Shown: one piece after another, positions 2 to 34,229 of the stretch
Numbering within the stretch: position 1 is the first letter of the stretch
Layout of the letters: each line of letters opens with the position of its first letter
Made by a program: the position numbers and the translations under genes
NCBI GenBank assembly: GCA_964485495.1
Contig: CAZAKE010000005.1
Span: 8,798-63,599 of the forward strand
Length of the DNA: 54,802 nt
Direction: 5' to 3'
Origin: an uncultured Spirochaetales bacterium
GTDB taxonomy: Bacteria > Spirochaetota > Spirochaetia > CAZAKE01
The notes under the pieces: generated by a model
Databases searched by the model: none
Told to the model about the DNA's origin: nothing
The model's input: only the letters and a program-made list of their open reading frames with translations

Positions 2-493
2 GGCGAGGATGATGACGCAGAGACGTACCGCCGTCTGTCGGTCCTGCCGGGTGAGGATGGGGAGCCGCTCTTGCAGACGGAGGACTCTGCCGCGGCACCC
101 TCGATCCACCTGTCCATCGCCCACGACGCGGAGTTCGTATTCTGTGCCGCCACTCCCGGACCGGTGGGCGTGGATGTCGAAGCGGTATCACGGCGTTTCG
201 AACGGGTCCGGGAGCGGATCATCCGCGACCGGAACCGGGAGGTAGTAGACAGGTATCTCGAGCAATCCGGTGATGACGAGGCGGTCGTGCTGGCTCGGGT
301 ATGGGCCGCGGCGGAGTGTGCGGTGAAGACCAGCCGTCTCAACCTCTGGCGCATCTTGGACACCGCGGAGCTTACCGGCCTCACCGAAGATAGGATCCTC
401 CTGAAGATACCCTCATCACCGAACGATACGATCGGAACGGTGATTCAGAAGATCCAGGATGGTCACGTGTTCTCGTATCTTCGCCGGCGATGA
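2..493 (+). CDS. 4'-phosphopantetheinyl transferase (Sfp/EntD type), C-terminal fragment truncated by window start
   Basis: Frame-2 translation from window start gives ...SIHLSIAHDAEFVFCA...GVDVE...WAAAECAVK. These match the PPTase motifs (h)SxSHs, G(I/V)D(I/V)E and WxxKEAxxK. The N-terminus lies outside the window. Confidence 0.6.
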   Translation, partial: GEDDDAETYRRLSVLPGEDGEPLLQTEDSAAAPSIHLSIAHDAEFVFCAATPGPVGVDVEAVSRRFERVRERIIRDRNREVVDRYLEQSGDDEAVVLARVWAAAECAVKTSRLNLWRILDTAELTGLTEDRILLKIPSSPNDTIGTVIQKIQDGHVFSYLRRR

Positions 494-580
494 TAGTTTT
501 CGGCGATTTTGCCGCCGTTCACCGAATTTCATCGCCTTTCGCTGGTTCGGGGTGAGAGAATACACTATTATTACAGTACC

Positions 581-3274: not shown

Positions 3275-3365
3275 TCGGTTTCTCCACTGCAGAATTTCGC
3301 GGCATGGTACCGCCCACGACCGAAGGTGTAAAGCCTCTCGACACATACACCCGACCCGTGACATC

Positions 3366-4436: not shown

Positions 4437-4582
4437 GGCCGCGGCCAACACCTTCGATCCGGCCCGGCCGGGGTGTGGTGGGGCGCAAGCGATCCGAGGG
4501 GTGACGGCTGTGCAATCGGACCGGCGGGCCTAGGCGGCGTGTAGGCCTGTCGAGAACATCCGCCGGTAAATCCTCCGGGACA

Positions 4583-13969: not shown

Positions 13970-14155
13970 CCCAGAGTCTGCAGGAGACACAGAAAACCAT
14001 CCGAATCTCTTCGGATAGAATGACAAGAGAAATGAGTAGATAAGAGTAACAGGAAACCAATGCCGCGGTGTTTCAGAATACACAACCACCGCCGAAAACG
14101 GCCCGGCACACCGACGCCGCTGACGCCGTAATTCGGCTGAGAGAGGAGAGAGAGG

Positions 14156-15772
14156 ATGAAAAGACGATATATTGGCTTGCTCCTGGCGGCGGTCATGGTG
14201 CTCTGCGCCGGCGGCTGCGTATACTACCTCGGCGGGGACGACAGTTCCCCCCCCCCCCTCCCCATCCAGGGGGGGGGGAACGAATTTTCGGTCGGTCCCG
14301 ATGTCCCCACATACACCATTCAGGTCCCCCAGGGCTACGACTCGGTCACCGTCCAGGCCACACCGGCCGACGAGAACGCGGTCGTCTCGGGAATCGGCAC
14401 TCACGATTTGATCGGCGACCTGACGGTGGTGACCCTCCTCGTGGAGATGTACGAGAGGGTGTACAACGAGTACGGCGAAGAGGACCGGAGATTCACGACC
14501 GAGTACACCCTCCTGTTCTCCAAAGGATCAGAAGATTCGCTCGATGGGTCCGGGATGGATCCGGACGAATACGAGAGCGACGACACGCCGGAGACGGCCT
14601 CGATCTATGGCGACGAAAGCCAGCAGCACACGATCCACTCGCGGACCGATGTGGACTATATCGCCGTCGAGATGGTCGATTATCTCACCTACACCATCAT
14701 GCTCGAGTCTATCGACGGGTTCTACCCGGAACTCGCACTCATTCAGGACGACACGGTGCTGGAGTCGGTCACCCCGTTCCTCGACTCCTGGAACGAACAA
14801 CTCACCTACACGCCGGAGGCGGCGGGAACCCTCTACGTGAGGGTGAAATCCACCTACCAGGCCGAGTTGTTCGCCTCGTACACGCTGACGATCGGTACCG
14901 AAGTGATTCCCATGGAGGTTCCGGCGGGGTTGACCGCCACAGATGATGAGTACGACGATCGAATCGTCTTGCAGTGGGACGCCACGACGGACGCCATGTA
15001 TTATGAGGTCTACAGATCCACCAACGGTACCGACTTCACCTTCCTGGGAACCAGCGAGAGCGCATCATATGAGGACATCTCGTCGCCGGAGAACGGTCTC
15101 TCATCCGGCACCACCTATGCCTATAAGGTACGGGGCGTCAAGAATGAGGAGGCCAAGAGCGAATTCTCGGACCCCGATGACGGAAGCATCGCCGGACTCG
15201 GCGTGATCTCCGACCTGACAGCCACCGTCGTGAACGGGACCATCCGGCTCAGCTGGACCCTTCTCGCCGACGAGGCCGTCGCATACACCATCTATGCCGC
15301 GGAGGGCGCGGAGGGCGAATACGAACCGATCGGTACCGAGTCGGACCCGTTGACGGATCCGAACACCGGGATGGCTCTCTACGACGTGGAGTCGGCCCAG
15401 CCGGAGATCGAGTACCGCTTCAAGATCGTTCCGGAGAAGAGCGGGGCAACCGGAGAAGACTCCAACACCGCCGGCGCCACCATCCCCTTCGCCTCGTATA
15501 AACCGATTGCGCCCAACGCCACCAACAGTGTTGTTGAACAGATCAGGGTCACCTGGGAGGCGGTCGACGGGGCCACCGGCTACGAGCTCTACCGGGCGGA
15601 CGAAGGCATGCAGAATCCGATCCTGCTCGGAGAGTTCACCGTCGGCGAGACTTCCCACACCGACACCGACATCACCGTAGGAGTCTACTACAACTACGCC
15701 ATCGTCGCGGTGAAAGACGGAACCACATCGGACATGAGTTACTACGACAACGGGATCGCGGTTTCACAATAG
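14156..15772 (+). CDS. secreted lipoprotein with fibronectin type III-like repeats
   Basis: MKRRYIGLLLAAVMVLCAGGC (lipobox LCAGGC). Repeated FN3-like segments (EVYRSTNGTDFTFLGT...YAYKVRGV; GYELYRADEG). GAGAGG SD upstream. Contains the C12/G10 homopolymer pair. Confidence 0.75.
   Translation: MKRRYIGLLLAAVMVLCAGGCVYYLGGDDSSPPPLPIQGGGNEFSVGPDVPTYTIQVPQGYDSVTVQATPADENAVVSGIGTHDLIGDLTVVTLLVEMYERVYNEYGEEDRRFTTEYTLLFSKGSEDSLDGSGMDPDEYESDDTPETASIYGDESQQHTIHSRTDVDYIAVEMVDYLTYTIMLESIDGFYPELALIQDDTVLESVTPFLDSWNEQLTYTPEAAGTLYVRVKSTYQAELFASYTLTIGTEVIPMEVPAGLTATDDEYDDRIVLQWDATTDAMYYEVYRSTNGTDFTFLGTSESASYEDISSPENGLSSGTTYAYKVRGVKNEEAKSEFSDPDDGSIAGLGVISDLTATVVNGTIRLSWTLLADEAVAYTIYAAEGAEGEYEPIGTESDPLTDPNTGMALYDVESAQPEIEYRFKIVPEKSGATGEDSNTAGATIPFASYKPIAPNATNSVVEQIRVTWEAVDGATGYELYRADEGMQNPILLGEFTVGETSHTDTDITVGVYYNYAIVAVKDGTTSDMSYYDNGIAVSQ
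14247..14278. repeat. homopolymeric tracts C12 ... G10 forming an inverted repeat inside the lipoprotein gene, codons ~31-41
   Basis: Direct read: cccccccccccc tccccatcca gggggggggg. Encodes SSPPPLPIQGGG. Candidate slipped-strand phase-variation site. Confidence 0.8.
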
Positions 15773-23311: not shown

Positions 23312-25237
23312 ATGAGCGACTTCGGAAGCGCGAATGAAAAGTGTACCGTCAGTGATTGCCCCTACCGGAAAGTCGTGGAGGATTTGGAAGAGCGGTGTGA
23401 GCGGATGCGCCATACTATCCGCACGATCCACGATAGGGTCTCTCCGATGGGTCACGACCTGCAGCACAACATCGACAGCTATCAGTCCCTGGCCGAGACG
23501 TCGACTGACGCGATCCTGCAGATAAACCAGGAGATGCAGATCACCTTCGTCAATTCGGCGGCCGAGCGCATGTTCAACTACAAACGGCAGGAGCTGATCG
23601 GCGAGACATTCAGCACCATATTTCCCTCGGCGGTCTATCAACGCTATCACACCCTGTTCGCCAAGTACTTCGTCATCGACGAACAACACCGGGACATGAG
23701 CGGCATGCAGAACACCATCGAGGTACTCGGGATCACCAGAGATTCCAACGTCTTCCCCATGGAGATCTCATTCGGAAACTCGAAGACGGTGCAACGGAAT
23801 CCGCGGGTCACCTGTATCCTGCGGGATATCACTCAGCGGAAGATTATCGAACGAAAACTACGGTATTTGGCGTATCACGACCGGCTCACCGACCTGGGTA
23901 ACCGGGACCTGTTCTTCGAATCCATCGAGGAGACCATCAAACGGGTGAAACGGGACGGCGGCAGGAAATCCGCGGTGATGTTCCTGGACCTCGACGGGTT
24001 CAAGTCGGTGAACGATACCCTCGGACACGCCATGGGAGACCGGGTGCTGCAGGAGTGTTCCAGACGGCTCGAGGGCTGCCTGCGCGAAAGCGATCATATC
24101 TTCCGGTTCGACGACCGGATGAACATGCCCGACAATATCAACGAGGACCTCTTCCGTTTCGGCGGAGACGAGTTCGTGGTGCTCCTCCCCTATATCAAGA
24201 AGCCGTCGGACGCCGCCACGGTGGCTCGCAAGATAATCAAGGCGATCCGCCAGCCCTTCATCGTATCGGAGGAGGCGGATTCTCGGAATATCAAGATCGG
24301 CGTGAGTATCGGAATAGCGGTGACTCCGGAGGACGGAATGACCGCCCGAAAGCTCATCACCAGCGCAGACGTCGCCATGTACAAGGCCAAGGAGGTGGGC
24401 AACCACTACGTCTTCTTCAACAAGACGATGAACCGCCGGATGATGGCGAAGCTCCAATTCGAACAGAGCCTCTCCGACGCGATGCTCGAGGAAGCCCTTC
24501 GTCTCCACTTCCAACCGATCATCGACGAGCGGGGCCGGGCGGTAGGCGCCGAGGCCCTCCTGCGATGGTTCCCAGAAGATTCGGAAGAGATATCCCCGGA
24601 AATTTTCATCCCCTTCGCGGAGGAGACCGGTCTGATCGTAGACATCGGCGACTGGGTACTGGAACGGGCCTGCCGCAGCCTCGGCGACTGGGAACGAAAC
24701 GGGCTGAAGGATTTTTTCGTCTCGGTCAATATCTCGCCGAAGCAGTTTCGCTCGCACGACTTCGTCGAGCGGATCTGCTCCACCATCAATCGGGTGGGTA
24801 TCAACCCGGGAAAGTTGAAACTCGAGGTCACGGAAGGCAGCATCATGGATGATCCGGTCGATGCCATTCGTAAGATGGAACTGATAAAGGAGATGAATCC
24901 GGGGCTTCGCTTCGCCATCGACGATTTCGGCACCGGATACTCCTCGCTGAGCCATCTATCGAATTTTCCGGCGGACATTCTCAAGATCGACAAGTCCTTC
25001 GTCATGTCAATAGACCGACGCAACAATGCAAAGATCGTGAAAACGATCATCGACCTGGCGGACAGTCTGGGACTGGGCGTCGTGGCCGAGGGCGTGGAGA
25101 CGAACGAGCAGGCCCAATTCCTCCTCAGGCGGGGATGCAGGTTTTTGCAGGGATTTCTCTTCTCGGAACCGGTCCCCCACGACGCGGTACCCGAGTTCGC
25201 CAAGAATACCTCGGGGCTCCTCTGTTCGGTGCCATAA
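23312..25237 (+). CDS. PAS-GGDEF-EAL protein (diguanylate cyclase/phosphodiesterase)
   Basis: PAS (ETSTDAILQIN...). GGDEF with RFGGDEF. EAL with EALLRW, DDFGTGYSSL, conserved EGVE/QG motifs. Confidence 0.9.
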   Translation: MSDFGSANEKCTVSDCPYRKVVEDLEERCERMRHTIRTIHDRVSPMGHDLQHNIDSYQSLAETSTDAILQINQEMQITFVNSAAERMFNYKRQELIGETFSTIFPSAVYQRYHTLFAKYFVIDEQHRDMSGMQNTIEVLGITRDSNVFPMEISFGNSKTVQRNPRVTCILRDITQRKIIERKLRYLAYHDRLTDLGNRDLFFESIEETIKRVKRDGGRKSAVMFLDLDGFKSVNDTLGHAMGDRVLQECSRRLEGCLRESDHIFRFDDRMNMPDNINEDLFRFGGDEFVVLLPYIKKPSDAATVARKIIKAIRQPFIVSEEADSRNIKIGVSIGIAVTPEDGMTARKLITSADVAMYKAKEVGNHYVFFNKTMNRRMMAKLQFEQSLSDAMLEEALRLHFQPIIDERGRAVGAEALLRWFPEDSEEISPEIFIPFAEETGLIVDIGDWVLERACRSLGDWERNGLKDFFVSVNISPKQFRSHDFVERICSTINRVGINPGKLKLEVTEGSIMDDPVDAIRKMELIKEMNPGLRFAIDDFGTGYSSLSHLSNFPADILKIDKSFVMSIDRRNNAKIVKTIIDLADSLGLGVVAEGVETNEQAQFLLRRGCRFLQGFLFSEPVPHDAVPEFAKNTSGLLCSVP

Positions 25238-25258
25238 CACTACGGACCCGAACTATCC

Positions 25259-26050
25259 TTAATACGCACCGACGAGTTCTCCGCTATAGACCCTACGTAC
25301 CCCGTCACTCGTCCGAAGGAGCAACTCTCCCTCCGGTCCGACCCCTTCGAGCAGACCGAGTATATCCTCACCCCTATCAGGCGAGCCCACGCGCACCCGG
25401 ACCTCCTCACCCGCCCGAAAGAGGCGTCGTGATACTTCGGAACGCCACGCCGCCTCTTGGAGGGCCCGCCGGAGGTGCGGCAGTAGCGATTCCAGGACCC
25501 GCACCGGCGACGGGGACGATCCCAGCTCAATGAAGAGAGAGGTGGCCTTGCCGGCAAGCTCCTGTGAGAACTCCCGTTGCCTGCAGTTCACGCCGATACC
25601 CGCCAGGAGCCTCGCTCCCCGAGCCTCGCAGAGGATACCCGAAATCTTCCGTCCGCCGCATAGGATATCGTTCGGCCACTTGATTACCACCGCGAGCCCG
25701 TACTCCTCCTCGAAGGCACGAGCCAGTCCCAGGCCGACGAGGAGCGGCAACGGCGCCCCGGAAGCCGGATCGGAGGGGTGTGACGGCACGAGGCACGTAC
25801 AGAGCAGGGCGGTGTCCACGGGACTCACCCACGTGCGGCCGGGAATCCGGCCCCGCCCCGCCGACTGAAACCCCGCGACGATCACCGTCCCCGGCGGAAA
25901 CCCCTCCTCCGCCAGTCTCACGGCCTCGTCCATGGTGGATTCCACCGTCCGACGGTAGAGCACCGGCGCGGAAAACGGATTCGGTATCTCGAGATATTCG
26001 TACTCGGTATCACTGAAACGGTGCTGATACCCGTTCATCGCTCTATTCAT
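25259..26050 (-). CDS. birA: biotin--[acetyl-CoA-carboxylase] ligase (BirA, class I without HTH)
   Basis: VIVAGFQSAGRGRIPGRTWVSP (GRGRxGRxW motif). KWPNDILCGGRKISGIL. Start taken at MNRAMNG (26050); the ORF track extends to 26092. Confidence 0.8.
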   Translation of the reverse strand: MNRAMNGYQHRFSDTEYEYLEIPNPFSAPVLYRRTVESTMDEAVRLAEEGFPPGTVIVAGFQSAGRGRIPGRTWVSPVDTALLCTCLVPSHPSDPASGAPLPLLVGLGLARAFEEEYGLAVVIKWPNDILCGGRKISGILCEARGARLLAGIGVNCRQREFSQELAGKATSLFIELGSSPSPVRVLESLLPHLRRALQEAAWRSEVSRRLFRAGEEVRVRVGSPDRGEDILGLLEGVGPEGELLLRTSDGVRRVYSGELVGAY

Positions 26051-26069
26051 ATCATACTGCGAACCGCTG

Positions 26070-26639
26070 TCAATACATATCTCCGAACACAATACGCCCG
26101 CCGATGGTCGGTCCCCAGGTCAGGAAGGACTGAAACGGAGTACCCGGGAGCAGGTTTCCGGAGACCTGATACCCGATATACAGAACGGGCATCATCCATT
26201 TGACGAAGGGGAAGCCGATCTCGAGGTCGATCTCTTCGAAGAAGCTGAGGTACCCCCCGCTGTCGAACAGATAGGAGTCGCCGCCGTAGGCGACACCGCC
26301 GACCCCGGTCCAACTGGTGATGGAGATCTGTATCGGCCGGGGCAGGATACGAATGCCGGTTACTATTCCACCGAAGGCCCCGCGGATCCCGGCAGGATTC
26401 TCCGAATCTCTGAAGGCCATGCCGAAACCGCCGCTGATCACGTAATTCCTGGACACACCGTACCCGTACGCGCCCAAGTTCACCATCTTGTCTCCCGCGG
26501 AGGCACGCCTGAAGGGCGCCGACATCCCGGGCAGCTTGTCGAGTTGATAACCGAAGAAGAACCCGCCGCCGCCGTCCGCAAAGGCCGAAACCGCTGCGAA
26601 GCAGGCAACCACGACGATCAAATATGCTTTCCTTTTCAT
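26070..26639 (-). CDS. small outer-membrane beta-barrel protein (OmpA-like transmembrane domain / OmpW-like) with signal peptide
   Basis: MKRKAYLIVVVACFAAVSAFA signal. Alternating Gly/aromatic beta-strand pattern. C-terminal ...RIVFGDMY. Confidence 0.6.
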   Translation of the reverse strand: MKRKAYLIVVVACFAAVSAFADGGGGFFFGYQLDKLPGMSAPFRRASAGDKMVNLGAYGYGVSRNYVISGGFGMAFRDSENPAGIRGAFGGIVTGIRILPRPIQISITSWTGVGGVAYGGDSYLFDSGGYLSFFEEIDLEIGFPFVKWMMPVLYIGYQVSGNLLPGTPFQSFLTWGPTIGGRIVFGDMY

Positions 26640-26957
26640 GTCGATCTCCTTATACTCTTCTTAGTGCCTTAGTGCTCTCAATGTACACTCAATGTACGAT
26701 CAATCGATATACAATATACTCAGTCTTGTGAACGAATTCCGACGCCGCGTCCGCGTCGGAGTGGACACTTGGTGATTCGATCTATCACACTATAACACTT
26801 CGTCACCCCGGAAGTGTCACCGGAAATTCCCGCACTCCGAGAGCTATTTCCGGAAAAAACACACGCCTCTCGGTGACAGGAATGATGAGAGTCGGTGTTA
26901 CACATGATGAGCGGCTCAGATCACAGCGGGTGCGACGCGGGGATCTTCAGAGGAAAC

Positions 26958-27437
26958 ATGGCAGTCGACGTTGAAGAATTCTACAGAAAATACGGGCCAA
27001 TGGTCCTCAGGCGTTGTCGCGCCCTCCTGCGGGACGAGGAGAAGGCGTTGGATGCGATGCAGGATGTGTTCGTACAGATCCTGAGGAAACAGGATCTACT
27101 TCACGACCGGGCCCCATCGAGCCTCCTGTATACCACCGCGACCAATGTCTGCCTGAACATCATGCGGAGCGATCGGCGTAAACCGGCGACATCTCAAGAG
27201 GAGCTGCTGTTCGAGATAGCCGGTAAGGACGACCCCGAACGACGGGTCCTGACCGGTCACTTCCTGGATAGAATCTTCGGGGCGGAGAAGGAGAGCACCA
27301 GAACCATCGCGGTTCTCCATTATGTGGACGGATTGACCTTGGAGGAGACCGCCAAGTGCGTGGGACTCTCGGTGTCCGGCGTCAGGAAACGGCTCCGGGG
27401 GCTTCGGAAACGGAGCCTTGCTCTCAAGGAGGTATGA
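26958..27437 (+). CDS. ECF-subfamily RNA polymerase sigma-70 factor
   Basis: Region 2 (DAMQDVFVQILRK) and region 4 HTH (LTLEETAKCVGLSVSGVRKRL). GAGGAAA SD before ATG 26958. The ORF-track start 26895 is also possible. Confidence 0.85.
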   Translation: MAVDVEEFYRKYGPMVLRRCRALLRDEEKALDAMQDVFVQILRKQDLLHDRAPSSLLYTTATNVCLNIMRSDRRKPATSQEELLFEIAGKDDPERRVLTGHFLDRIFGAEKESTRTIAVLHYVDGLTLEETAKCVGLSVSGVRKRLRGLRKRSLALKEV

Positions 27438-28264
27438 CGATGGGTAGAGACCAGATACCCGACTATGACTGGGAACGGTTGTCCCTGGATGAGTTGCCCG
27501 ACGGGCGGCTCGAAGAGATCCGGCGGCATCCCGAATTCGATACACAACGATCCGCGGCCATGTCCCGGATCCGGCAATCCGATGCCGAACTGCTCGAACG
27601 CTACCCGGCTGATGTGATGGCCACCCGGATCAGGGAACGAATGCAGGTCGAAGAGGTGCGAAACGAAGGGACGCCGGCCTCGGGGGGAAGCATCCTCCGG
27701 ACGGTGGTGGGAAATCCCCGCCTCGCGGCGGGCGTGGCGGCCCTGCTGCTGATTGCCGTCGGAATCATGCCCCTGATGTGGCTGAATACCCCGGTCACGC
27801 CGGAGCGGCAGCCGGAGAGCACCCGCATCAAGGGGCTGAAACCGGATATCCGTATCTATCGCGAGCAGGGCGGAGATCCGGAACTCCTGCATGAGAATGA
27901 CCTGGTGAGAGAGAACGACCTCCTGCAGATCGGCTATGTCTCGGGAGGATGGAAACACGGCGCCATCTTCTCCATCGACGGAAACGGTGCGGTGACCCTG
28001 CACTACCCGGCCGATATCTTCTCTACGACACACTTGTCTCCGGAGGGAGAGATCAAACTCCCCTACTCCTATCAACTCGATAGCGCACCGGAGTTCGAAC
28101 GGTTCTTTTTTGTGCTCTCGGACAAGGAATTCTCCGTGAACGAGATACTATTATACGCGGAGGAGTTGGTCGAATCACGCAGCGTGCGCTCTATCCGCTC
28201 CTTGAGTCTGCCCCGAGGGTACGAGCAGGCTTCTATCGTCTTGAAGAAGGGGGCGTCGGAGTGA
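27434..28264 (+). CDS. transmembrane anti-sigma factor (cognate to upstream ECF sigma)
   Basis: ATGA overlap with the sigma stop. Cytoplasmic N-terminal anti-sigma segment. Single TM LAAGVAALLLIAVGIMPLMW. Periplasmic C-terminal domain. Confidence 0.75.
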   Translation: MTMGRDQIPDYDWERLSLDELPDGRLEEIRRHPEFDTQRSAAMSRIRQSDAELLERYPADVMATRIRERMQVEEVRNEGTPASGGSILRTVVGNPRLAAGVAALLLIAVGIMPLMWLNTPVTPERQPESTRIKGLKPDIRIYREQGGDPELLHENDLVRENDLLQIGYVSGGWKHGAIFSIDGNGAVTLHYPADIFSTTHLSPEGEIKLPYSYQLDSAPEFERFFFVLSDKEFSVNEILLYAEELVESRSVRSIRSLSLPRGYEQASIVLKKGASE

Positions 28265-28284
28265 ACCACCCAACGAACGGGAAA

Positions 28285-30927
28285 ATGAAGTATTTGGGAA
28301 TTTGGGGATCGAAGATCCTCTTCACGGCCTGTTTCATACTACTCACGCTGCTCACGACCACCGGACTTTCCGCCGCGACGCCGGATTCCGCCCTAAGACG
28401 ATTCGCCCTGTTCGTCGGCGCCAACGACGGCGGTGACGACAGGGTGCGCTTGCTCTACGCCGGTACCGACGCCGAGTCGATGCAGGCGGTCCTGTCCGAG
28501 ATGGGAGGACTCGAGCGGAACGATATGCTGCTGCTCGAGGATCCGGATCTTTCCACCTTCGAACAGAGTTTCGAGGACCTTCGGACGCGAATCCTGACGG
28601 CGAAAGACAACTCCCGCAGGATAGAGTTCATTCTCTACTACTCGGGACACTCCGACGAGAACGGACTCATGCTCGGTGGGGAGTTGTTTCCCTACAAGGC
28701 ACTGCGCGAACGAATCAACGAGATGAACGCGGACGTCAACATCGCGATCCTCGATTCGTGCTCCTCCGGGTCATTCACCCGCCTCAAGGGCGGCCGGCGC
28801 AGAGCGCCTTTCATGATCGACGAATCGGTGAAGACTCAAGGATACGCGTTTCTCACCTCCAGCTCGGAGAACGAGGCGGCACAGGAGTCGGACGCGATCC
28901 AGAGCTCCTTCTTCACCCACTACCTCATCTCCGCCCTGCGAGGCGCCGCTGACGCCACCCAGGACGGGAAGATCACGTTGATGGAGGCGTACACCTACGC
29001 CTCGGAGGAGACGCTGGCCCGGACCGAGAATACCCAGGCCGGGGCGCAGCACCCCTCCTACGACATTAAACTCACCGGCTCGGGAGACCTGGTCCTCACC
29101 GACCTCAGGTCTCCCTCCGCCGGCATGGTGATCGACAAGGATATCGTCGGGAGGCTCTTCATCCGAAACAAGGCCGGGAGGCTGATGGCTGAGATCCGAA
29201 AGCTCGAAGGCATTCCGATGATCGTGGCGTTGCCTCCGGGGATGTATACGGTCACCTTAGAGGATGAGGAGATGATGAGCGAAGCCGGAATCACCCTCAC
29301 CGGCACCCGGATGGTGAGGGTCTCTCAGTCGGACTTCTTCGAGAAGGTTCGGGAGTTCGCGGTGGCACGGGGCGATGTCGAGGAGAGAGAAGACGAAGTA
29401 GCGGAGATCGCCGAGGAGTCGGATCCCGTTGCAGGAGACGCTCCGGCGGCCGGAGGGGCCGCGAAGCGGGCCGCGGAGGCCGCACAACGGGCCCTATCAC
29501 GATTGGACGAGGAGTTGAAGGCGGCGGAGGATGGTGCGGAGATGAAGGCCGAGGCCGCGGCGAGTGCAGGGGTATCCGCCGCAGGCGACGCCGACGCAAC
29601 GACAGGCAGACAGGTCGGAGAGAAACCGGCGCGAGCAGAGAAACCGGATGCTTCGAGTCCCAATCGGCAGGCGAGACCTTCGGTTTCCACGGACCCGGTG
29701 GAGGGGGGGATATCCAGGAGGGTGTTGAGCTTCCAGTTCGTACCGGGCCTTCCATTCAACAACTCCCGTCACATCGTGACCGCCTTCGGCCTCAATTTCC
29801 TCGGTCGCTCCTACAGGATCGAAGGCGCCGAAATCGGGTTCATGAATATCGTCATCGAAGATGTCCGCGGATTCCAGGGGGGAGTACTCTTCAACCTGGT
29901 AGGCGGCGGCGTGTACGGCGGGCAGGCGGCCTCGCTGTTCAACATCGCCCACAGCTCCAAGGCGGCCCAGGTGGCCGGCCTCTTCAACATCTCCAACGAG
30001 AGCACCTCCGTACTGCAGGCGGCGGGTGTATTCAACCTGGCCTCACGGGGTGGAATGATCGGCGCGCAGGCGGCGGGGATATTCAACATCACCGGCGGTA
30101 CGGTCCGAGGGGTTCAGACGGCAGGCGTGTTCAACATCAACAACGGAGGGACACTGGGGCTGCAGGGAGCCGGGGTGTTCAACATCGCCGACGATACTGT
30201 CGGAGGTCAGATATCCGGAATCTTCAACATCGCCGGCGGCGGCATGACCGGTATCCAGGGAGCCTCAGTCTTCAACTCGGCCAGAGACGCAAAGGGCATC
30301 CAAATGAGTCTGGTGAACATCTCCGCCAACGTGGCCGGGGCTCAGGTGGGACTCATCAACATCGCCAAGAACGTCAAGGGAACTCAGATCGGGCTCATCA
30401 ATATCAACCGGGACATGAAGGGTGTTCCTATCGGCATCATCAACATATCCAAGAGCGGCATCTTCAACTTCGGTTCCTGGTACGATGAACGGGGACTCAT
30501 CTACATGGGCCTTCAGTTCGGTTCGAAGTATCTCTTTACCACGGTGTACGCCGGAATGCCGTATGAGGATCCACTCCAGACCATCGCGGCCGGAGTCGGC
30601 GGCGGTGTTCACGTACCCATCGGTCCCTTCTTCGCCGAACTCGAGGCATCGGTCCAGGAGGTCGCCCAGGGCACGATATTCAAGGAAACCTTCGTACATG
30701 TCTTCACCCCGCAGATGAACAAGGCGGTCTATCCGGTGGCCAAGGTAACCGGCGGGATCACCCTCTTCGGAAGCTTGTCGATATTCGGCGGCCTGGTGAT
30801 GGACATCCACGTGCCGGGTTACACGGTCAAGAGCGGACTGGACTATCCGAGAGATCCGTGGGTGCTCAACTTCCCGTCCCGCGACGTGGAGCTGCACCCG
30901 AGATGGTTCGCGGGGCTCAGGTTCTAA
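28285..30927 (+). CDS. secreted caspase-domain (peptidase C14, orthocaspase-like) protein with Ala/Glu-rich linker and ~13 C-terminal '[VIL]FNI-x(3-6)-G-x-Q-x-AG' tandem repeats plus beta-rich C-terminal domain
   Basis: Signal/TM ILFTACFILLTLLTTTGLSA. Caspase His/Cys dyad motifs LYYSGHSDENG and ILDSCSSGS. Repeats read directly (GVFNI..., 29881-30480). 4-nt overlap (GTGA) with the anti-sigma stop; start taken at ATG 28285. Confidence 0.8.
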   Translation: MKYLGIWGSKILFTACFILLTLLTTTGLSAATPDSALRRFALFVGANDGGDDRVRLLYAGTDAESMQAVLSEMGGLERNDMLLLEDPDLSTFEQSFEDLRTRILTAKDNSRRIEFILYYSGHSDENGLMLGGELFPYKALRERINEMNADVNIAILDSCSSGSFTRLKGGRRRAPFMIDESVKTQGYAFLTSSSENEAAQESDAIQSSFFTHYLISALRGAADATQDGKITLMEAYTYASEETLARTENTQAGAQHPSYDIKLTGSGDLVLTDLRSPSAGMVIDKDIVGRLFIRNKAGRLMAEIRKLEGIPMIVALPPGMYTVTLEDEEMMSEAGITLTGTRMVRVSQSDFFEKVREFAVARGDVEEREDEVAEIAEESDPVAGDAPAAGGAAKRAAEAAQRALSRLDEELKAAEDGAEMKAEAAASAGVSAAGDADATTGRQVGEKPARAEKPDASSPNRQARPSVSTDPVEGGISRRVLSFQFVPGLPFNNSRHIVTAFGLNFLGRSYRIEGAEIGFMNIVIEDVRGFQGGVLFNLVGGGVYGGQAASLFNIAHSSKAAQVAGLFNISNESTSVLQAAGVFNLASRGGMIGAQAAGIFNITGGTVRGVQTAGVFNINNGGTLGLQGAGVFNIADDTVGGQISGIFNIAGGGMTGIQGASVFNSARDAKGIQMSLVNISANVAGAQVGLINIAKNVKGTQIGLININRDMKGVPIGIINISKSGIFNFGSWYDERGLIYMGLQFGSKYLFTTVYAGMPYEDPLQTIAAGVGGGVHVPIGPFFAELEASVQEVAQGTIFKETFVHVFTPQMNKAVYPVAKVTGGITLFGSLSIFGGLVMDIHVPGYTVKSGLDYPRDPWVLNFPSRDVELHPRWFAGLRF
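29881..30480 (+). repeat. in-frame tandem repeat region (~45-51 nt units) encoding the FNI/GxQxAG repeats
   Basis: Repeated ...gtgttcaacatc...ggcgcgcaggcggcgggg... units read directly. Protein repeats LFNIAHS../LFNISNE../VFNLASR../IFNITGG../VFNINNG../VFNIADD../IFNIAGG../VFNSARD../LVNISAN../LINIAKN../LININRD../IINISKS. Confidence 0.85.
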
Positions 30928-30933
30928 GAATCG

Positions 30934-30963
30934 ACGCGGAAATTTCGCATTCGCCGTTTTTTT
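30934..30963 (+). terminator. rho-independent terminator after the sigma/anti-sigma/caspase operon
   Basis: GCGGAAATTTCGC imperfect palindromic stem followed by attcgccgTTTTTTT. Confidence 0.5.
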
Positions 30964-30995
30964 AGCTATATTGTAGCTACGATACGGAGGATTGG

Positions 30996-31325
30996 ATGTC
31001 CATCTACAGGTTGCACTTCAAGTGGAAAGACAAGGAATACACGCTCAAGGCCAAGAGCCTCGATATGACCCACCCGTATTTCGTTTCGATCAAGGGGCTC
31101 ATATTCCCCAAGGGAAAGAAGCTCATCATCGATCCGTCCGACGACGAACTTCGCCGGCAGTTCGGCAAATCCGAGCACATCATGCTGCCGTTTCAGACCG
31201 TCTCGCTCATCGAGGAGTTCGAGGAGGATCCCGACGAGACGGATGAGGGCAAGGTGATGCAGTTTCCGACCATCGAAGAGCATTTCGATGGTGAGGAGGA
31301 GGATACCTCATCTTCGGATACATAG
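30996..31325 (+). CDS. small acidic hypothetical protein (109 aa)
   Basis: GGAGG SD 6 nt upstream of ATG. MSIYRLHFKWKDKEYTLKAKSLDMTHPYFVSIKGLIF...acidic tail. Confidence 0.55.
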   Translation: MSIYRLHFKWKDKEYTLKAKSLDMTHPYFVSIKGLIFPKGKKLIIDPSDDELRRQFGKSEHIMLPFQTVSLIEEFEEDPDETDEGKVMQFPTIEEHFDGEEEDTSSSDT

Positions 31326-31340
31326 CCGGATGCCTCGCCC

Positions 31341-32486
31341 CTACGCAGGCTCCTGCGAAGGATCGTTCAAGGGCCCTTCCGTAGACTCCCGAGTGATATA
31401 CCCGCCGCCGAGGATGATGTCGCCCCGGTAGAAGACCGCCGACTGTCCCGGTGCGACGACTACCGGTTTCTCAGTTTCGACGAGACATTCGGATCCGGTT
31501 TCGGAGGTGACGCGGCAGCGAACCTCGGCGGAGTTGTACCGGACCCGCACCAGGCACTCCATCGGTCCCGAACCGTCCCAGGTTGAATCCGGTCCGTTCC
31601 AGACGGTATCCACGGTGGGGAACCGATCGCGGCCGAGATCGTCCCGCCTGCCGACGGCTATCCGGTTCTCCGCCGGATACACGCCGGTCACATACCATGG
31701 TCCGCTCCCGAGACCCAATCCTCGGCGCTGGCCGACGGTGTAGTGGAGATACCCTCGGTGTCGTCCCAGGACGATACCGTCGGGGCCGACGATCGGCCCC
31801 GGACCGGGCATGATCAGCCGGTCTCCCAGGTAGTGCGCGATGAAATCCGTATACTCCCCCGTCACGAAGCAGGCATCCTGACTCTCCCTGACCTTCGCAC
31901 TCGGGAGCCCCAACTCCGAGGCCCGGCGGACTGCGTCGGCCTTCCGTATCTCACCAAGGGGAAACCGGACGAAGGGCAGGAGATCCGGAGGCACCCTATA
32001 CAGCATATACGCCTGGTCCTTGCGGGGATCGGCCGCCTTCCTGAGGTAGACCCGTCCGTTCCGTTCCACGGTTCGAGCATAGTGGCCTGTGGCAAAATAG
32101 AGAGGGTCATCCTCCGCGACGACACCCTCGTCACGGAGGGTCTTTCGGCAGGCCTCTCGAAAGGCGGTAAACCGGACGAGGCCGTTACAGCGTATACAGG
32201 GGTTGGGGGTTCTCCCGCGGACATACGCCTCGGCAAAATCACCGACAACCTCCCGATCGAACACCGATTCCATATCCAGTGTCAGGAAGGGCATCTCTAA
32301 CATCTCGGCCAGCCTCCGGGCGCGATCAACGGCTTCCGGATCACAGCATGGCGAGTCCGGCCACACGAAGTGACTCACGCCAACTACCTGATCCCACACA
32401 CCTCGATCACGCTCCTCTGCCAACGTATACGCCGCGACAGCCGAATCCACGCCGCCGCTCATGCCTATCGCAATTACGCGCTTCAT
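31341..32486 (-). CDS. mnmA: tRNA-specific 2-thiouridylase MnmA
   Basis: MKRVIAIGMSGGVDSAVAAY (PP-loop SGGxDS). ...NPCIRCN... Conserved C-terminal domain. Start chosen at MKRV (32486); the ORF track extends to 32522. Confidence 0.88.
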   Translation of the reverse strand: MKRVIAIGMSGGVDSAVAAYTLAEERDRGVWDQVVGVSHFVWPDSPCCDPEAVDRARRLAEMLEMPFLTLDMESVFDREVVGDFAEAYVRGRTPNPCIRCNGLVRFTAFREACRKTLRDEGVVAEDDPLYFATGHYARTVERNGRVYLRKAADPRKDQAYMLYRVPPDLLPFVRFPLGEIRKADAVRRASELGLPSAKVRESQDACFVTGEYTDFIAHYLGDRLIMPGPGPIVGPDGIVLGRHRGYLHYTVGQRRGLGLGSGPWYVTGVYPAENRIAVGRRDDLGRDRFPTVDTVWNGPDSTWDGSGPMECLVRVRYNSAEVRCRVTSETGSECLVETEKPVVVAPGQSAVFYRGDIILGGGYITRESTEGPLNDPSQEPA

Positions 32487-32661
32487 GTCCGAATTATTAC
32501 CATGCATATCAGGTTTCCGCAATCATCTCTCTCGGAATACGCGCCGTCACACCGCGGTGCCCCTCGAAACAGCAAAAAAAATCCTGACTCGTCTTGCATT
32601 TTCCGCCGAAAGGATGTATGTTTATGCGTCTATTTGGTATATTTATACAGAAGGTGCGGAT

Positions 32662-33123
32662 ATGCGGGAGCGAAACACCAGGTTGCAGGCCATCATGGAG
32701 ATCATCGAACAAAACAGAATAGAGAGCCAGGATGAACTCCTCGATCTTCTTCACGGGGCCGGATTCGAGGTAACCCAGGCCACCCTATCGAGGGATTTGA
32801 AATCCCTCAAGGTCGGCAAGGTCTCGGACGGCGGCAACGGCTATTACTATACCATGCATGGAGACACGGTTGCACCGGAGTCCATTCCCGACCTGGTGCG
32901 TGATATCCAGCGCGGGTTCATCGCTATTGAGTTCTCGGGGAATCTCGCGGTTATCCATACGTTGCCCGGTCACGCCGACAGCGTGGCCTTCGCCCTCGAC
33001 CGGATCGGGCCTACCGATATCCTCGGCACGGTGGCGGGAGACGACACGATCTTCTGTGTCCTCAAGGAGGAAGCATCAAAGGATGCGATCCTGCGGACGG
33101 TACACCAGAAGCGGCAACTATAG
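32662..33123 (+). CDS. argR: arginine repressor ArgR
   Basis: N-terminal winged HTH (IESQDELLDLLHGAGFEVTQATLSRDLKSL). C-terminal GTVAGDDTIFCV (arginine-binding GDDT motif). AAGGTG SD upstream. Confidence 0.88.
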   Translation: MRERNTRLQAIMEIIEQNRIESQDELLDLLHGAGFEVTQATLSRDLKSLKVGKVSDGGNGYYYTMHGDTVAPESIPDLVRDIQRGFIAIEFSGNLAVIHTLPGHADSVAFALDRIGPTDILGTVAGDDTIFCVLKEEASKDAILRTVHQKRQL

Positions 33124-33194
33124 AACCCGCAGTGAAACTTCCAGGCGGCAGGAGAGACGTCGATGATCGACATCACGATCGATGAGGAAAATCA

Positions 33195-34229
33195 ATGAAA
33201 GCAGCAATACTCGGGGCGACGGGCTATGTAGGGATGGTGCTCCTCAGGCTTCTCCAGGCACATCCACAGGTGGAATCGGTGATTCCGGTATCACGCTCGC
33301 AACAGGGCGAACTCGTGTCCGCCGGTGACCGGGGTTTTCCCGCGCAGGGCGGTAAATTCGGGCCGACTTCGGGTAGATACGTCTCCACGGAGGAGGCCTT
33401 GGCGCTAAAACCGGATGTGGTCTTCTCGGCGCTTCCCCATCTCGCGTCGGCGGAGGTGTGCCGGCCGTTCATCGGGAACTCGGTGGTGTTCGATCTGTCC
33501 GCCGATCTTCGGTTGAAGAACCCGGAGGATTTCCTCAACGCCTACGGCGAACCGTCGCCCTTTCCCGACCTATCGCGGAGGGCGGTATACGGGCTGGCGG
33601 AGATCTACCGAGAGGAGATCGCGAAGGCCGATCTGGTGGCGGTACCCGGGTGCTACCCCACCGCCACCCTGCTCCCGCTGCTGCCGGTACTCGCGGCGTT
33701 CGGAGCGGAGGGCCTCGTGACGGTAAACGCCCTATCCGGGGTCTCCGGCGCAGGCAGGAAGGTGAAGGAGAACTATCTCTTCTGCCGGCGGACGGAAAAC
33801 TGCGGAGCCTATGCCCCCGGCCGGTCTCACCGGCATATCGCCGAGATGGTACAGGAGAGTTCCGCGGTGGCGTCGGAGATCGACCTGATCTTCACGCCCC
33901 ATCTGGTTCCCCTGCACAGGGGCATGGCGGTGACCACCAGCCTCAGGACCCGCCGGCCGGTTTCCGATGAAGCGATCGCCGAGGCTCTCCGGAGCAGGTA
34001 TGCCGAATCCCCCTGTGTGTACCTCACCCCGGGACATCCCCCCGAGACCGCGGACGTCAGGGGCACCAACCGCTGCGACATCTCCTGGTATATCGACGGC
34101 CGAGACCTGTTCCTCTTCTCGGCCATCGACAATCTGATGAAGGGGGCCGCCGGTCAGGCGGTGCAGTGCATGAACATTCGACACGGATTCGGCGAGAGCG
34201 AGGGATTGCCCCTCGCGTCGATGGTGTAG
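33195..34229 (+). CDS. argC: N-acetyl-gamma-glutamyl-phosphate reductase
   Basis: MKAAILGATGYVGMVLLRLL (NAD-binding). Active-site region VPGCYPTA. Confidence 0.88.
   Translation: MKAAILGATGYVGMVLLRLLQAHPQVESVIPVSRSQQGELVSAGDRGFPAQGGKFGPTSGRYVSTEEALALKPDVVFSALPHLASAEVCRPFIGNSVVFDLSADLRLKNPEDFLNAYGEPSPFPDLSRRAVYGLAEIYREEIAKADLVAVPGCYPTATLLPLLPVLAAFGAEGLVTVNALSGVSGAGRKVKENYLFCRRTENCGAYAPGRSHRHIAEMVQESSAVASEIDLIFTPHLVPLHRGMAVTTSLRTRRPVSDEAIAEALRSRYAESPCVYLTPGHPPETADVRGTNRCDISWYIDGRDLFLFSAIDNLMKGAAGQAVQCMNIRHGFGESEGLPLASMV

Follow-up and report, generated by a model that had tools for sequence, protein, structure and literature searches.

An ECF sigma factor operon

Three collinear genes lie on the + strand at positions 26958-30927 of the window (the whole 54,802-nt stretch of DNA analysed here), as an initial annotation had described. 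The first product is an ECF sigma factor, the second a single-pass anti-sigma-like protein and the third a Peptidase_C14 protein of 888 aa. The observations in that annotation were confirmed in part, and its interpretation was partly supported.

The first gene (26958..27437, +) encodes a 159-aa ECF (group 4) sigma-70 factor, in line with its original naming. The product matches Pfam Sigma70_r2 (6e-11) and TIGR02937 (ECF; 55.8 bits, cut-off 42.9), with region 4 matches under their Pfam cut-offs, and is 42-73% identical (median 61%) to the sigma factors of 65 related loci, with alignment from residue 1. We take ATG 26958 as the start because the GTG 26895 start of the open reading frame falls within the promoter -10 element. 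The sigma stop overlaps the anti-sigma ATG at 27434 in the ATGA that had been noted, a ribosome-binding site (AAGGAGG) is present, and a 4-nt overlap also occurs in ~26 of 68 related loci. The GTGA overlap claimed between the anti-sigma and caspase genes holds only if GTG 28261 is the caspase start. Gene callers place this start at ATG 28285 (880 aa, P0001), and homologues begin at the equivalent MK; that choice leaves a 20-nt gap after the anti-sigma gene instead of an overlap. The single clear terminator of the initial annotation was not upheld. A T7 run after a weak hairpin (30956-30962, +) is a possible but unconvincing operon terminator, and a consensus terminator scan found no terminator at this position (fold z-score -0.01). 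The small acidic gene reported past the operon is present (30996-31325, a DUF1820 family match) and is a neighbour unrelated to the triad.

The second gene (27434..28264, +) encodes a 276-aa single-pass anti-sigma-like (ActD-like) protein, identified by its position, topology and homologue names. It has a cytoplasmic N-domain (residues ~1-115), a transmembrane helix (~118-140, nt 27785-27853) and a periplasmic DUF4384-like region (~131-276). No Pfam or NCBIfam family reaches threshold for this protein, and its N-domain has no anti-sigma family match, no zf-HC2 and no HxxxCxxC motif. The earlier anti-sigma assignment therefore stands for a membrane anti-sigma-like protein, and not for a match to an anti-sigma family. 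A sigma-binding role is suggested by the order of the genes, the membrane topology, the translational coupling and the JGI label "anti-sigma factor RsiW" on some homologues. The periplasmic part was assigned through homologues, 22 of 35 of which match Pfam DUF4384 over HMM positions 3-81 with sub-cut-off scores (13-24 bits against a gathering score of 27). Cyanobacterial orthocaspases have DUF4384 as an accessory domain (PMC7475262), fusions of it to proteases have been reported, and its likeness here would count for a link between protease and anti-sigma. In the juxtamembrane region lies R131-I-K133-G134 (27824..27835, +), a candidate cleavage site. Its residues are conserved (R in 33/35 homologues, [ILV] in 28/35, K and G each in 35/35) and the linker around it is variable. 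The R-[ILV]-K-G motif occurs only three times in the 48,805 residues of the window's open frames (6e-5 per residue).

Architecture of the caspase-solenoid-barrel protein

The third gene (28261..30927, +) encodes a caspase-solenoid-barrel protein of 888 aa (880 aa from ATG 28285). Its Peptidase C14 (caspase/orthocaspase) domain (residues 45-280; 28393..29100, +) matches Pfam PF00656 at residues 46-272 (45.6 bits, cut-off 21.4), and catalytic His130 (nt 28648-28650) and Cys167 (nt 28759-28761) lie on the + strand within YYSGHSD and DSCSSG motifs. Both are invariant in 115 homologues, which bears out the intact His/Cys dyad described earlier; D70, S128 and D165 are likewise invariant. Foldseek matched the domain to caspase-8/-7/-3 and metacaspases (target-normalised TM ~0.6). 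D70, S128 and D165 are the equivalents of Asp95, Ser156 and Asp211, the S1-pocket residues of TbMCA2 (PMC4357240), and the CVND Asp of plant metacaspase-4 falls at D70 in the alignment. Conservation of these S1-pocket equivalents suggests a preference for a basic P1 residue (Arg/Lys). The protein shares its dyad, caspase-hemoglobinase fold, SGH...DSC motifs and acidic S1-pocket residues with orthocaspases and metacaspases (MEROPS C14B). Among described orthocaspases we found none with a signal peptide, solenoid and outer-membrane barrel, and none with a dedicated ECF sigma/anti-sigma pair.

Six to eleven residues past the catalytic Cys is the loop T173-R-L-K176-G-G178 (28777..28794, +), which is nearly invariant across homologues (T 114/115, R 113/115, L 109/115, K 115/115, G 115/115, G 114/115). 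Residues 173-176 have pLDDT <50, and the stretch 169-194 is without secondary structure. The loop occupies the place of the intersubunit linker in caspases and is a candidate autoprocessing site.

A predicted eight-stranded beta-sandwich (residues 283-362; 29107..29346, +; AF2 pLDDT ~90) follows the protease domain; a relationship to the anti-sigma periplasmic domain was considered and rejected (hhalign probability 2%). Next is a flexible linker (residues 367-484; 29359..29712, +) with pLDDT <50 over most of its length. It is Ala/Glu-rich as claimed (A 20%, E 11% over ~371-500), with a lone predicted long helix at 399-435. Its length differs among homologues, whose whole proteins span 692-880 aa.

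The repeat region (residues ~504-733; 29770..30459, +) is modelled as an LA_2272-type beta-solenoid of ~15 rungs, in keeping with the fold first proposed from the repeat pattern; the AF2 model of solenoid plus barrel has pLDDT 93 and pTM 0.83. The array is indeed tandem, and its extent was revised from about 13 repeats of 14-17 residues to 15 units running from residue 511 to ~735. Eleven units follow the form FN[ILS]...G-x-Q-x-AG with a 14-17-residue period, and four follow [VI]NI...G-x-Q/P-[IV]-G[IL] with a period of 8-14, the final one being a short unit of 8 residues. There is no DNA-level tandem repeat in this region, so the periodicity exists at the protein level only. Contrary to the earlier statement that the repeat fits no known family, it matches NCBIfam NF047436 LA_2272_repeat above cut-off (34.8 bits against 25), and it is also VC2662-like (model NF047437, 41.5 bits against a cut-off of 140). 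VC2662 itself is uncharacterised (PMC10865864). The three share a 14-16-residue repeat of the form G-x-Q-x-(A)G-[VIL]-(F/V/I)-N-I, whereas the LA_2272 and VC2662 families rest on repeat-only proteins and the repeat in the window joins a protease to a membrane barrel. To our knowledge, neither family has a known function or a solved structure.

The C-terminus, noted before as beta-rich, is all-beta and can be refined to a predicted 8-stranded outer-membrane beta-barrel (residues ~734-888; 30460..30924, +; end ...GLRF) that matches OmpA, NspA, OprF, PagL and OmpW. Its strand connections alternate between short (2-3 residues) and long (6, 18 and 24 residues), and its last residue is Phe. Both features would be expected of a barrel N-terminus, and hence a solenoid and caspase, that face the periplasm, although this AF2 topology argument is indirect. 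With such a barrel the protease would be outer-membrane-anchored and probably periplasm-facing, rather than simply secreted. Could the barrel instead act like an autotransporter, displaying the solenoid and perhaps the caspase on the surface as an adhesin or protease, with the sigma/anti-sigma pair only controlling expression? We regard this as distinctly unlikely, since type V barrels have 12 strands, this one has eight and resembles OmpA, NspA, OprF, PagL and OmpW, an 8-stranded barrel lacks a pore for a passenger, and the modelled loop-length pattern sets the barrel N-terminus in the periplasm.

Conservation, promoter motif and candidate regulon

Relatives of the caspase protein were found in no fewer than 562 species-representative genomes of Spirochaetota and Myxococcota. 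Co-occurrence was counted over the 68 loci with enough upstream DNA. The full sigma/anti-sigma/caspase set is present in 65 of them, consistent with the expectation that the three genes travel together, and the remaining three have the anti-sigma and caspase genes; the caspase gene was never found alone. The anti-sigma gene is 5' of the caspase gene in 68/68 loci, with or without a sigma gene, which points to a direct partnership. Where the sigma gene lies elsewhere (L046, L049 and L018), the pair is intact and the promoter motif is kept.

Genes flanking the triad vary from locus to locus; its neighbours are housekeeping genes in conserved synteny (biotin ligase, MnmA, ArgR, ArgC). These surroundings bear on whether the triad is an anti-phage or abortive-infection module, like craspase or the DdvAS-controlled defence islands. 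Caspase-fold proteases paired with an ECF sigma/anti-sigma are known in defence contexts, and an EACC1-associated caspase model was matched partially, below cut-off. A defence role nevertheless seems very improbable given the housekeeping neighbours, the spread of the caspase relatives over two phyla and the predicted location of the protease in the periplasm or outer membrane; PADLOC matched none of the proteins, and no defence genes adjoin the triad in the inspected loci.

An ECF-type promoter upstream of 26958 had been named as something to look for, and a conserved candidate motif is present there, GTGACA-N16-GTGTT (26873..26899, +), 59 nt 5' of the sigma ATG, which suggests autoregulation. 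Across relatives the operon promoter has the consensus GT(A/G)ACA-N16-GTGTT and is kept across two phyla. A looser motif precedes the sigma start in 53/65 loci, mostly as a + strand copy ~55-85 nt away, and 820 kb of loci contain 76 strict matches, almost all of them in this place upstream of the operon. Within the window there are two matches against 0.03 expected. The second, GTGACA-N16-AGTGTT (26794..26820, -), faces the gene for p189 (26070..26639, -), an open reading frame for a 189-aa signal-peptide protein that is outer-membrane-protein-like, with a C-terminal aromatic residue, and has no family in Pfam or NCBIfam. Only nine p189 homologues occur in 5.8e9 proteins. They adjoin the triad in L016, L080, L083 and L084, and in L085 the homologue is away from the triad, yet the promoter motif stands 59 nt ahead of it. 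The divergent promoter layout recurs in L080 and L083; L007, L024 and L033 show it too, there with other families of small proteins. We consider p189 a candidate regulon member on the strength of these motif matches.

Two of the three sigma-less loci are Myxococcus-type, with the arrangement of the act operon of M. xanthus (Gronewold and Kaiser 2001, PMID 11359579). The Myxococcota homologues of the middle protein carry the NCBI name "ActD-like protein". In Myxococcus sp. CA023, the homologues of the anti-sigma-like and caspase-solenoid-barrel genes come after genes for a GGDEF response regulator of 301 aa, a response-regulator/sigma-54 activator and a GNAT protein. This order is the actA/actB/actC layout of the operon named actABCD in PMC4320627, in which ActA has 302 aa and a GGDEF domain (PMC4877007). 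The window differs in that it, like 65/68 loci, has its own ECF sigma gene before the pair and no actABC, and sequence identity is only ~34%. The act phenotype in M. xanthus is reportedly a changed timing of CsgA (C-signal) accumulation, and we know of no published molecular role for ActD.

These act-type loci raise the alternative that the middle protein serves the caspase from the membrane, as its regulator, inhibitor or substrate adaptor, with the sigma factor only providing transcription. The missing adjacent sigma gene in such loci, the lack of an anti-sigma family match and the protease-associated nature of DUF4384 would all fit. We nonetheless find it unlikely. A conserved ~110-residue cytoplasmic domain precedes the one transmembrane helix, the ATGA overlap with the sigma stop is found in many loci, some pipelines label homologues RsiW, and in Myxococcus the ECF promoter motif still stands immediately 5' of the anti-sigma gene.

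A proposed trans-envelope module and related systems

Our tentative reading, to which we give somewhat less than an even chance, is a trans-envelope module in which an Arg/Lys-specific caspase cuts the anti-sigma protein and frees the ECF sigma factor. The sigma factor would transcribe its own operon from GT(A/G)ACA-N16-GTGTT, plus at least one small outer-membrane-protein-like gene, and would be held by the cytoplasmic N-domain of the anti-sigma protein in the inner membrane. The orthocaspase would leave via its Sec signal peptide and be anchored in the outer membrane by its C-terminal barrel. The solenoid of ~15 rungs would form a rigid rod of roughly 7 nm before the barrel, and the flexible ~120-residue linker would allow the protease head to reach the inner membrane. 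Held as a zymogen, the caspase would respond to an envelope signal by self-processing after K176 in T-R-L-K176-G, and would then make the site-1 cut after K133 in the matching T-R-I-K133-G of the anti-sigma protein. Loss of the anti-sigma stub by intramembrane proteolysis would release the sigma factor. The R-x-K-G common to the anti-sigma juxtamembrane linker and the T-R-L-K-G-G loop past Cys167 is just four or five residues long, and its role in each protein might be structural.

If the caspase activates the sigma factor of its own gene, a runaway positive loop would follow unless the protease is tightly gated. An effector encoded in the operon escapes such feedback, and the caspase may accordingly be an output: sigma and anti-sigma would sense envelope stress otherwise and induce the protease and small outer-membrane proteins, which would serve in quality control or remodelling of the envelope or in self-destruction. 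The caspase gene does lie within an autoregulated operon, small outer-membrane-protein-like genes also appear in the candidate regulon, and envelope proteases are common in ECF regulons. We judge this reading possible but rather doubtful, because anti-sigma and caspase genes are adjacent in all 68 loci, even without a sigma gene, and because it makes coincidences of the shared R-x-K-G and the DUF4384-protease association.

Anti-sigma cleavage by the caspase would have a precedent, by analogy, in DdvA/DdvS of M. xanthus (PMC11506125), where a transmembrane anti-sigma and its ECF sigma factor are linked to a caspase-fold domain in the periplasm. DdvA has a periplasmic TPR-CHAT, and membrane-near proteolysis has been proposed first, then RseP (PMC11506125). 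In DdvA the anti-sigma and the protease-like domain form one fusion protein, the latter acting in cis or in trans within a dimer, and the anti-sigma has a zinc-binding domain, whereas the protease in the window is separate and outer-membrane-anchored and its anti-sigma partner lacks HxxxCxxC. Type III-E craspase (Csx29, Csx30, RpoE) likewise has a caspase-fold protease that cuts an anti-sigma-like protein holding an ECF sigma factor, and the C-terminal domains of Csx30 include a DUF4384 class, the domain type of the periplasmic part of the anti-sigma in the window. Csx29 is, however, a cytoplasmic TPR-CHAT protein, while the window protease is an exported, outer-membrane-anchored Peptidase_C14, and it is not RNA-guided and has no CRISPR genes nearby. 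The route from an outer-membrane component through a single-pass inner-membrane anti-sigma to an ECF sigma factor resembles cell-surface signalling by FecA/FecR/FecI and regulated proteolysis by DegS/RseA/sigma-E, as would a site-1 cut in the periplasmic juxtamembrane region. Unlike these, the operon has no TonB-dependent transducer, FecR domain or PDZ serine protease, and its proposed site-1 enzyme would be a cysteine protease on the outer-membrane protein itself.

The operon and its conservation

The first gene of the operon (26958-27437, + strand) encodes a 159-aa ECF (group 4) sigma-70 factor, in agreement with the initial annotation. The protein scores 55.8 bits against the NCBIfam model TIGR02937 (cut-off 42.9) and matches Pfam Sigma70_r2 at 6e-11; region 4 models match below their Pfam cut-offs. 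Like other members of the ECF superfamily, it contains regions 2 and 4 only. Alignments with homologues begin at residue 1 of the 159-aa form, and we rejected a longer open reading frame starting from GTG 26895 because this GTG sits within the -10 element of the conserved promoter.

The second gene (27434-28264, + strand) encodes a 276-aa protein. Its ATG at 27434 is preceded by an AAGGAGG ribosome-binding site and overlaps the sigma stop codon (ATGA) as originally described, and the same 4-nt overlap was seen in approximately 26 related loci. The window protein had no Pfam or NCBIfam match. Aligning 35 homologues revealed a conserved cytoplasmic N-terminal domain of ~110 residues, one hydrophobic helix at ~118-140, a variable linker, and a conserved C-terminal domain. 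The HxxxCxxC zinc motif of class I (zf-HC2) anti-sigma factors is absent from this alignment, and a PDB profile search with the family returned spurious matches only, with no relative among them. From the gene order, the ATGA overlap, the single transmembrane helix, and the label "anti-sigma factor RsiW" carried by several homologues at JGI, we infer that the protein binds and inhibits the sigma factor. That it regulates the caspase and is no anti-sigma factor at all seems improbable to us, and we refer to it below as anti-sigma-like.

The third gene (28261-30927, + strand) encodes the 888-aa caspase protein. Its start is ambiguous between GTG 28261 and ATG 28285. The GTGA overlap with the anti-sigma-like gene noted in the initial annotation holds for the former; public gene calls use the latter, and homologues begin at the equivalent "MK". 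Whichever start is used, a hydrophobic signal-peptide-like segment ending LSA↓A lies upstream of the caspase domain.

A degenerate-pattern scan, counting one genome per species, identified at least 562 genomes encoding a relative, mainly from Spirochaetota (Marispirochaeta, which is the closest named relative, Sediminispirochaeta, Alkalispirochaeta, Treponema including T. bryantii, and a Leptospirales MAG) and Myxococcota (Myxococcus, Archangium, Haliangium, and Nannocystaceae). Gene order was counted in the 68 loci for which 1.5 kb or more of upstream sequence was available. All three genes are present in one order and on one strand in 65 of these, so the expected co-occurrence is borne out; the other three loci have the anti-sigma-like and caspase genes only, and the caspase gene is alone in none (0/68). 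Across related loci, identity to the window proteins is 42-73% for the sigma factor and 25-47% for the anti-sigma-like protein. Flanking genes differ between loci, which indicates that the triad is the conserved unit. Its near-core distribution and housekeeping synteny argue against a phage-defence module, as does the finding that none of five proteins matched a PADLOC defence model, and we regard such a role as very improbable.

The single terminator described at the end of the operon is weak at best: a consensus scan called none, and the T7 run at 30956-30962 follows a poor hairpin (fold z-score -0.01). The small acidic protein gene reported after it is present (30996-31325), encodes a DUF1820 protein, and has a promoter-like site of its own, a sigma-70-like box (30944-30972). 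We asked whether it might be a fourth part of the module and discarded the idea in view of this site and because no homologue lies beside the triad in 80 related loci; we treat it as an unrelated neighbour. The flanks (23312-26092 and 31341-34229) carry ordinary genes for a PAS-GGDEF-EAL protein, a BirA-like biotin ligase, MnmA, ArgR, and ArgC. Synteny with a Marispirochaeta locus (L002) is partial; there, neither the DUF1820 gene nor the divergent p189 gene (see below) occurs, and MnmA and ArgR are separated by a FapA gene.

Domain architecture of the caspase protein

Residues 46-272 match Peptidase_C14 (PF00656) at 45.6 bits (cut-off 21.4), and the catalytic dyad H130 (YYSGHSD) and C167 (DSCSSG) is invariant among 115 sequences, upholding the initial assignment. 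Foldseek matched the caspase head to caspase-8/-7/-3/-6 and metacaspases (E 3e-5 to 1e-3, target-normalised TM ~0.6), placing it in the caspase-hemoglobinase fold. A PDB sequence search with the caspase domain alone gave no match, and a search with the family profile gave plant metacaspases only, weakly (E 0.02). The score against NF047832 (caspase, EACC1-associated type) was 62.3 bits, below the cut-off of 140. The putative S1 pocket of the metacaspase TbMCA2 is formed by Asp95, Ser156, and Asp211 (PMC4357240). Their counterparts here, D70, S128, and D165, are all invariant and would fit cleavage after Arg or Lys.

Two AlphaFold2 models were built from the 115-sequence alignment, one of the full-length protein (mean pLDDT 82.5) and one of residues 485-888 (pLDDT 93.3, pTM 0.83). 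They show an N-terminal signal helix, the caspase domain (residues 45-280), a confident beta-sandwich (residues 283-362), the previously noted Ala/Glu-rich linker (residues 367-484), which is mostly disordered with one long helix (399-435), and a region from residue ~504 to 888 that is all-beta (pLDDT 96-98), as had been anticipated. We also considered whether the beta-sandwich and the anti-sigma periplasmic domain form a homotypic pair, and dropped this idea because hhalign found them to be unrelated (probability 2%).

The initial annotation counted about 13 tandem repeats of 14-17 residues. The repeats are real and number 15, from residue 511 to ~735: 11 units have a period of 14-17 residues (FN[ILS]-x5-6-G-x-Q-x-AG-[VI]) and four have a period of 8-14 residues ([VI]NI-x4-G-x-Q/P-[IV]-G[IL]), the last being a short unit of 8 residues. 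Tandem Repeats Finder detected nothing in the DNA encoding them, so that the periodicity exists without a DNA-level repeat. The repeat does not fall outside every known family, as was first thought: NF047436 ("LA_2272 family surface repeat") matched at 34.8 bits (cut-off 25), with its best stretch at residues 693-716 in the 14-residue type, and a Myxococcus homologue reached 45.1 bits. Residues 645-736 also resemble the VC2662 family (NF047437), at 41.5 bits and below its cut-off of 140. VC2662 is an uncharacterised V. cholerae protein (PMC10865864), and LA2272 appears only in localisation screens. The modelled solenoid of ~15 rungs would form a rod of roughly 7 nm.

The beta-rich C-terminal domain recognised at the outset is modelled as an 8-stranded OmpA-type barrel. 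It comprises the last ~155 residues, in which eight antiparallel strands are joined by alternating short (2-3 residues) and long (6, 18, and 24 residues) connections and end in an aromatic C-terminus (...GLRF). Its best structural matches are the 8-stranded OprF-N, OmpA, NspA, PagL, and OmpW. In the model, this pattern of connections is that of an OmpA-type barrel with the N-terminus toward the periplasm, which would make the solenoid, linker, and caspase periplasmic. Autotransporter-like display of the protein at the cell surface is therefore disfavoured by the loop pattern, and also by the strand number, eight rather than the 12 of a type V translocator barrel; we consider it quite improbable and take the predicted periplasmic location as our preferred reading.

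A conserved promoter motif and its candidate regulon

A two-part motif search of the 260 nt upstream of the sigma genes recovered the conserved motif GGT(A/G)ACA-N16-(G)TGTT(A). A looser form precedes the sigma start in 53 of 65 loci, mostly on the + strand and 55-85 nt away. An AAC-containing -35 element and such spacing are typical of ECF promoters, and GT(A/G)ACA-N16-GTGTT, with AAC in its -35, a GT-containing -10, and ~16 nt between them, has the form predicted for an autoregulated ECF promoter. The window has two matches (0.03 expected). One precedes the sigma operon (26873-26899, + strand) and the other (26820-26794, - strand) faces the divergent gene of p189 (26639-26070, - strand), a 189-aa protein that has a signal peptide and ends in an aromatic residue. 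Between these back-to-back motifs, in the predicted p189 leader, lies a 7-bp inverted repeat, CCGACGC-N7-GCGTCGG (26739-26759).

The related loci, 820 kb in total, hold 76 copies of the strict motif, nearly always before a sigma gene. Most of the additional copies stand before genes of small secreted proteins (177-256 aa), which fall into three mutually unrelated sequence families. The first is found at related loci L007/L024/L033, the second at L019/L022/L023/L026/L029/L054/L058/L062/L066/L025, and the third, that of p189, in the window and at L016/L080/L083/L084/L085. These partner proteins have a signal peptide, are ~180-230 aa long, and mostly end in an aromatic C-terminus, occupying a motif-driven slot beside the triad in which the family differs by clade. 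The pattern looks like non-orthologous replacement of one small outer-membrane-protein-like regulon member. One subclade (L044, ~1032; L065, ~797; L069, ~806) has an extra motif before the gene of a ~790-aa secreted protein, which lies upstream of the triad.

Homologues of p189 are rare (9 in 5.8e9 proteins). The gene adjoins the triad at L016, L080, L083, and L084. At L085 it is unlinked from the triad and the motif is still present 59 nt upstream. As the unlinked gene keeps the motif, there is good evidence, at the level of sequence, that the motif is the recognition site of the sigma factor and that small outer-membrane-protein-like genes are candidate members of its regulon.

A third copy in the window, GTAACA-N16-GGTGTT (14046-14072, + strand; chance expectation ~0.03 per window), is found 84 nt before a gene for a 538-aa protein with fn3 and GH85_C domains (14156-15772), which may be a further regulon member. 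Immediately before that gene is one for an HtrA/DegP-like protease with Trypsin_2 and two PDZ domains (12302-13819).

A candidate protease-substrate pair and its possible link to the act operon

We suggest tentatively, with confidence a little short of even, that the caspase triggers the sigma response by regulated proteolysis, each functional step being one that we infer. An outer-membrane-anchored periplasmic zymogen would process itself at T-R-L-K↓G upon an envelope cue, and the processed caspase would then make the site-1 cut of the anti-sigma-like protein at T-R-I-K↓G. The sigma factor so freed would induce its own operon and the small outer-membrane-protein-like genes. The caspase, which is itself encoded in that operon, could alternatively be an effector of the regulon and not its trigger; we consider this unlikely and favour action of the caspase on the anti-sigma-like protein, for five reasons.

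First, the two genes are never separated in the 68 loci. Second, the anti-sigma periplasmic domain appears to be DUF4384-like, and DUF4384 is a protease-linked domain. Matches to PF14326 (DUF4384) were found in 22 of 35 homologues at 13-24 bits, below the 27-bit gathering score, always in the periplasmic domain and spanning HMM positions 3-81 of 81. A precomputed match exists for two of 120 homologues, and the window protein itself has none. DUF4384 is an accessory domain of cyanobacterial orthocaspases (PMC7475262). It is also one C-terminal domain class of Csx30, the RpoE-binding protein that the craspase protease cleaves.

Third, the two proteins share an R-x-K-G motif. In the anti-sigma-like protein, R131-[ILV]-K133-G134, often preceded by T, is the sole invariant contiguous motif in the variable juxtamembrane stretch. 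The caspase has the invariant motif F-T-R-L-K176-G-G 6-11 residues past the catalytic Cys. The loop that contains it has a pLDDT <50 and lacks secondary structure; the intersubunit processing site of caspases occupies the same position. When every open frame of the window is counted (48,805 residues), there are three occurrences of R-[ILV]-K-G, and two of these are the anti-sigma and caspase sites. Fourth, the counterparts of the S1 pocket would fit cleavage after Arg or Lys. Fifth, there are precedents in craspase (Csx29-Csx30-RpoE) and in DdvA/DdvS (PMC11506125), in both of which a caspase-fold protease is coupled to an ECF anti-sigma factor. Craspase differs in that its protease is a TPR-CHAT protein, whereas the window protease is of C14 type with neither CHAT nor TPR, and no CRISPR-associated genes neighbour the window operon.

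The single parts of the module (ECF sigma factor, C14 caspase, LA_2272 repeat, and OmpA-like barrel) are of known kinds, and there are precedents for anti-sigma factors undergoing regulated proteolysis by a caspase-fold protease. What appears to be new is the combination of a separate, predicted outer-membrane-tethered periplasmic orthocaspase and a solenoid spacer with a dedicated sigma/anti-sigma pair. In the literature on ECF sigma factors with caspase, Peptidase_C14, or orthocaspase, we could not find this operon described, nor the defined promoter or the motif shared by enzyme and partner. In the public records examined, the window proteins are "hypothetical protein" (JGI/IMG) or nameless, and the name "caspase family protein" is given to some relatives. 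Caspase homologues abound in bacteria and, to our knowledge, few have a known substrate or physiological role. The module is conserved, mechanistically suggestive, and directly testable. It offers a candidate enzyme-substrate pair, in which an orthocaspase of Arg/Lys type and a membrane anti-sigma factor have an invariant T-R-x-K-G in common; a well-defined ECF promoter supplies a readable output, and relatives are encoded by hundreds of species of spirochaetes and myxobacteria. Confirmation would extend the known modes of ECF sigma activation by a route through a cysteine protease anchored in the outer membrane, give the LA_2272/VC2662 repeat a function as a periplasmic beta-solenoid spacer, and provide a molecular handle on ActD of the Myxococcus xanthus act operon.

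ActD and the M. xanthus act operon have reportedly been known genetically since 2001, and act mutations are said to shift the level and timing of C-signal (CsgA); we know of no molecular function assigned to ActD. Myxococcota homologues of the middle protein are labelled "ActD-like protein" by NCBI, a name with no model behind it in NCBIfam. The window protein matches four of these (P0161, P0199, P0200, and P0203) at E 1e-28 to 1e-34, and the same four are 49-52% identical to the anti-sigma-like protein of Myxococcus sp. CA023 (L046). At this locus (16-7166) and at L049, genes for a 301-aa GGDEF response regulator, a response-regulator/sigma-54 activator, and a GNAT protein are followed by the anti-sigma-like and caspase-solenoid-barrel genes. 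This order appears to be that of the M. xanthus actABCD(E) operon. ActA is described as a 302-aa GGDEF-domain protein (PMC4877007), and the name "actABCD operon" is in use (PMC4320627). The act context is found at L046 and L049 only and is absent from the window.

The module plausibly bears on the unexplained ActD phenotype. In a more speculative extension, which we think rather improbable, the outer-membrane-tethered caspase would be a self-reporting sentinel of outer-membrane assembly or inter-membrane spacing, with the rod and linker setting when its head reaches and cuts the anti-sigma-like protein at T-R-x-K↓G, and the same ancient module in the Myxococcus act operon (ActD with the caspase encoded downstream) would act as the so far unexplained timer of C-signal production. 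If so, caspase-type regulated proteolysis would be a control step in bacterial multicellular development.

Where no sigma gene is adjacent (three loci), the promoter motif stands directly before the anti-sigma-like gene. At L046 and L049, an internal ECF-type motif lies between the GNAT gene and the actD-like gene, and the cognate sigma gene must lie at another site in these genomes.
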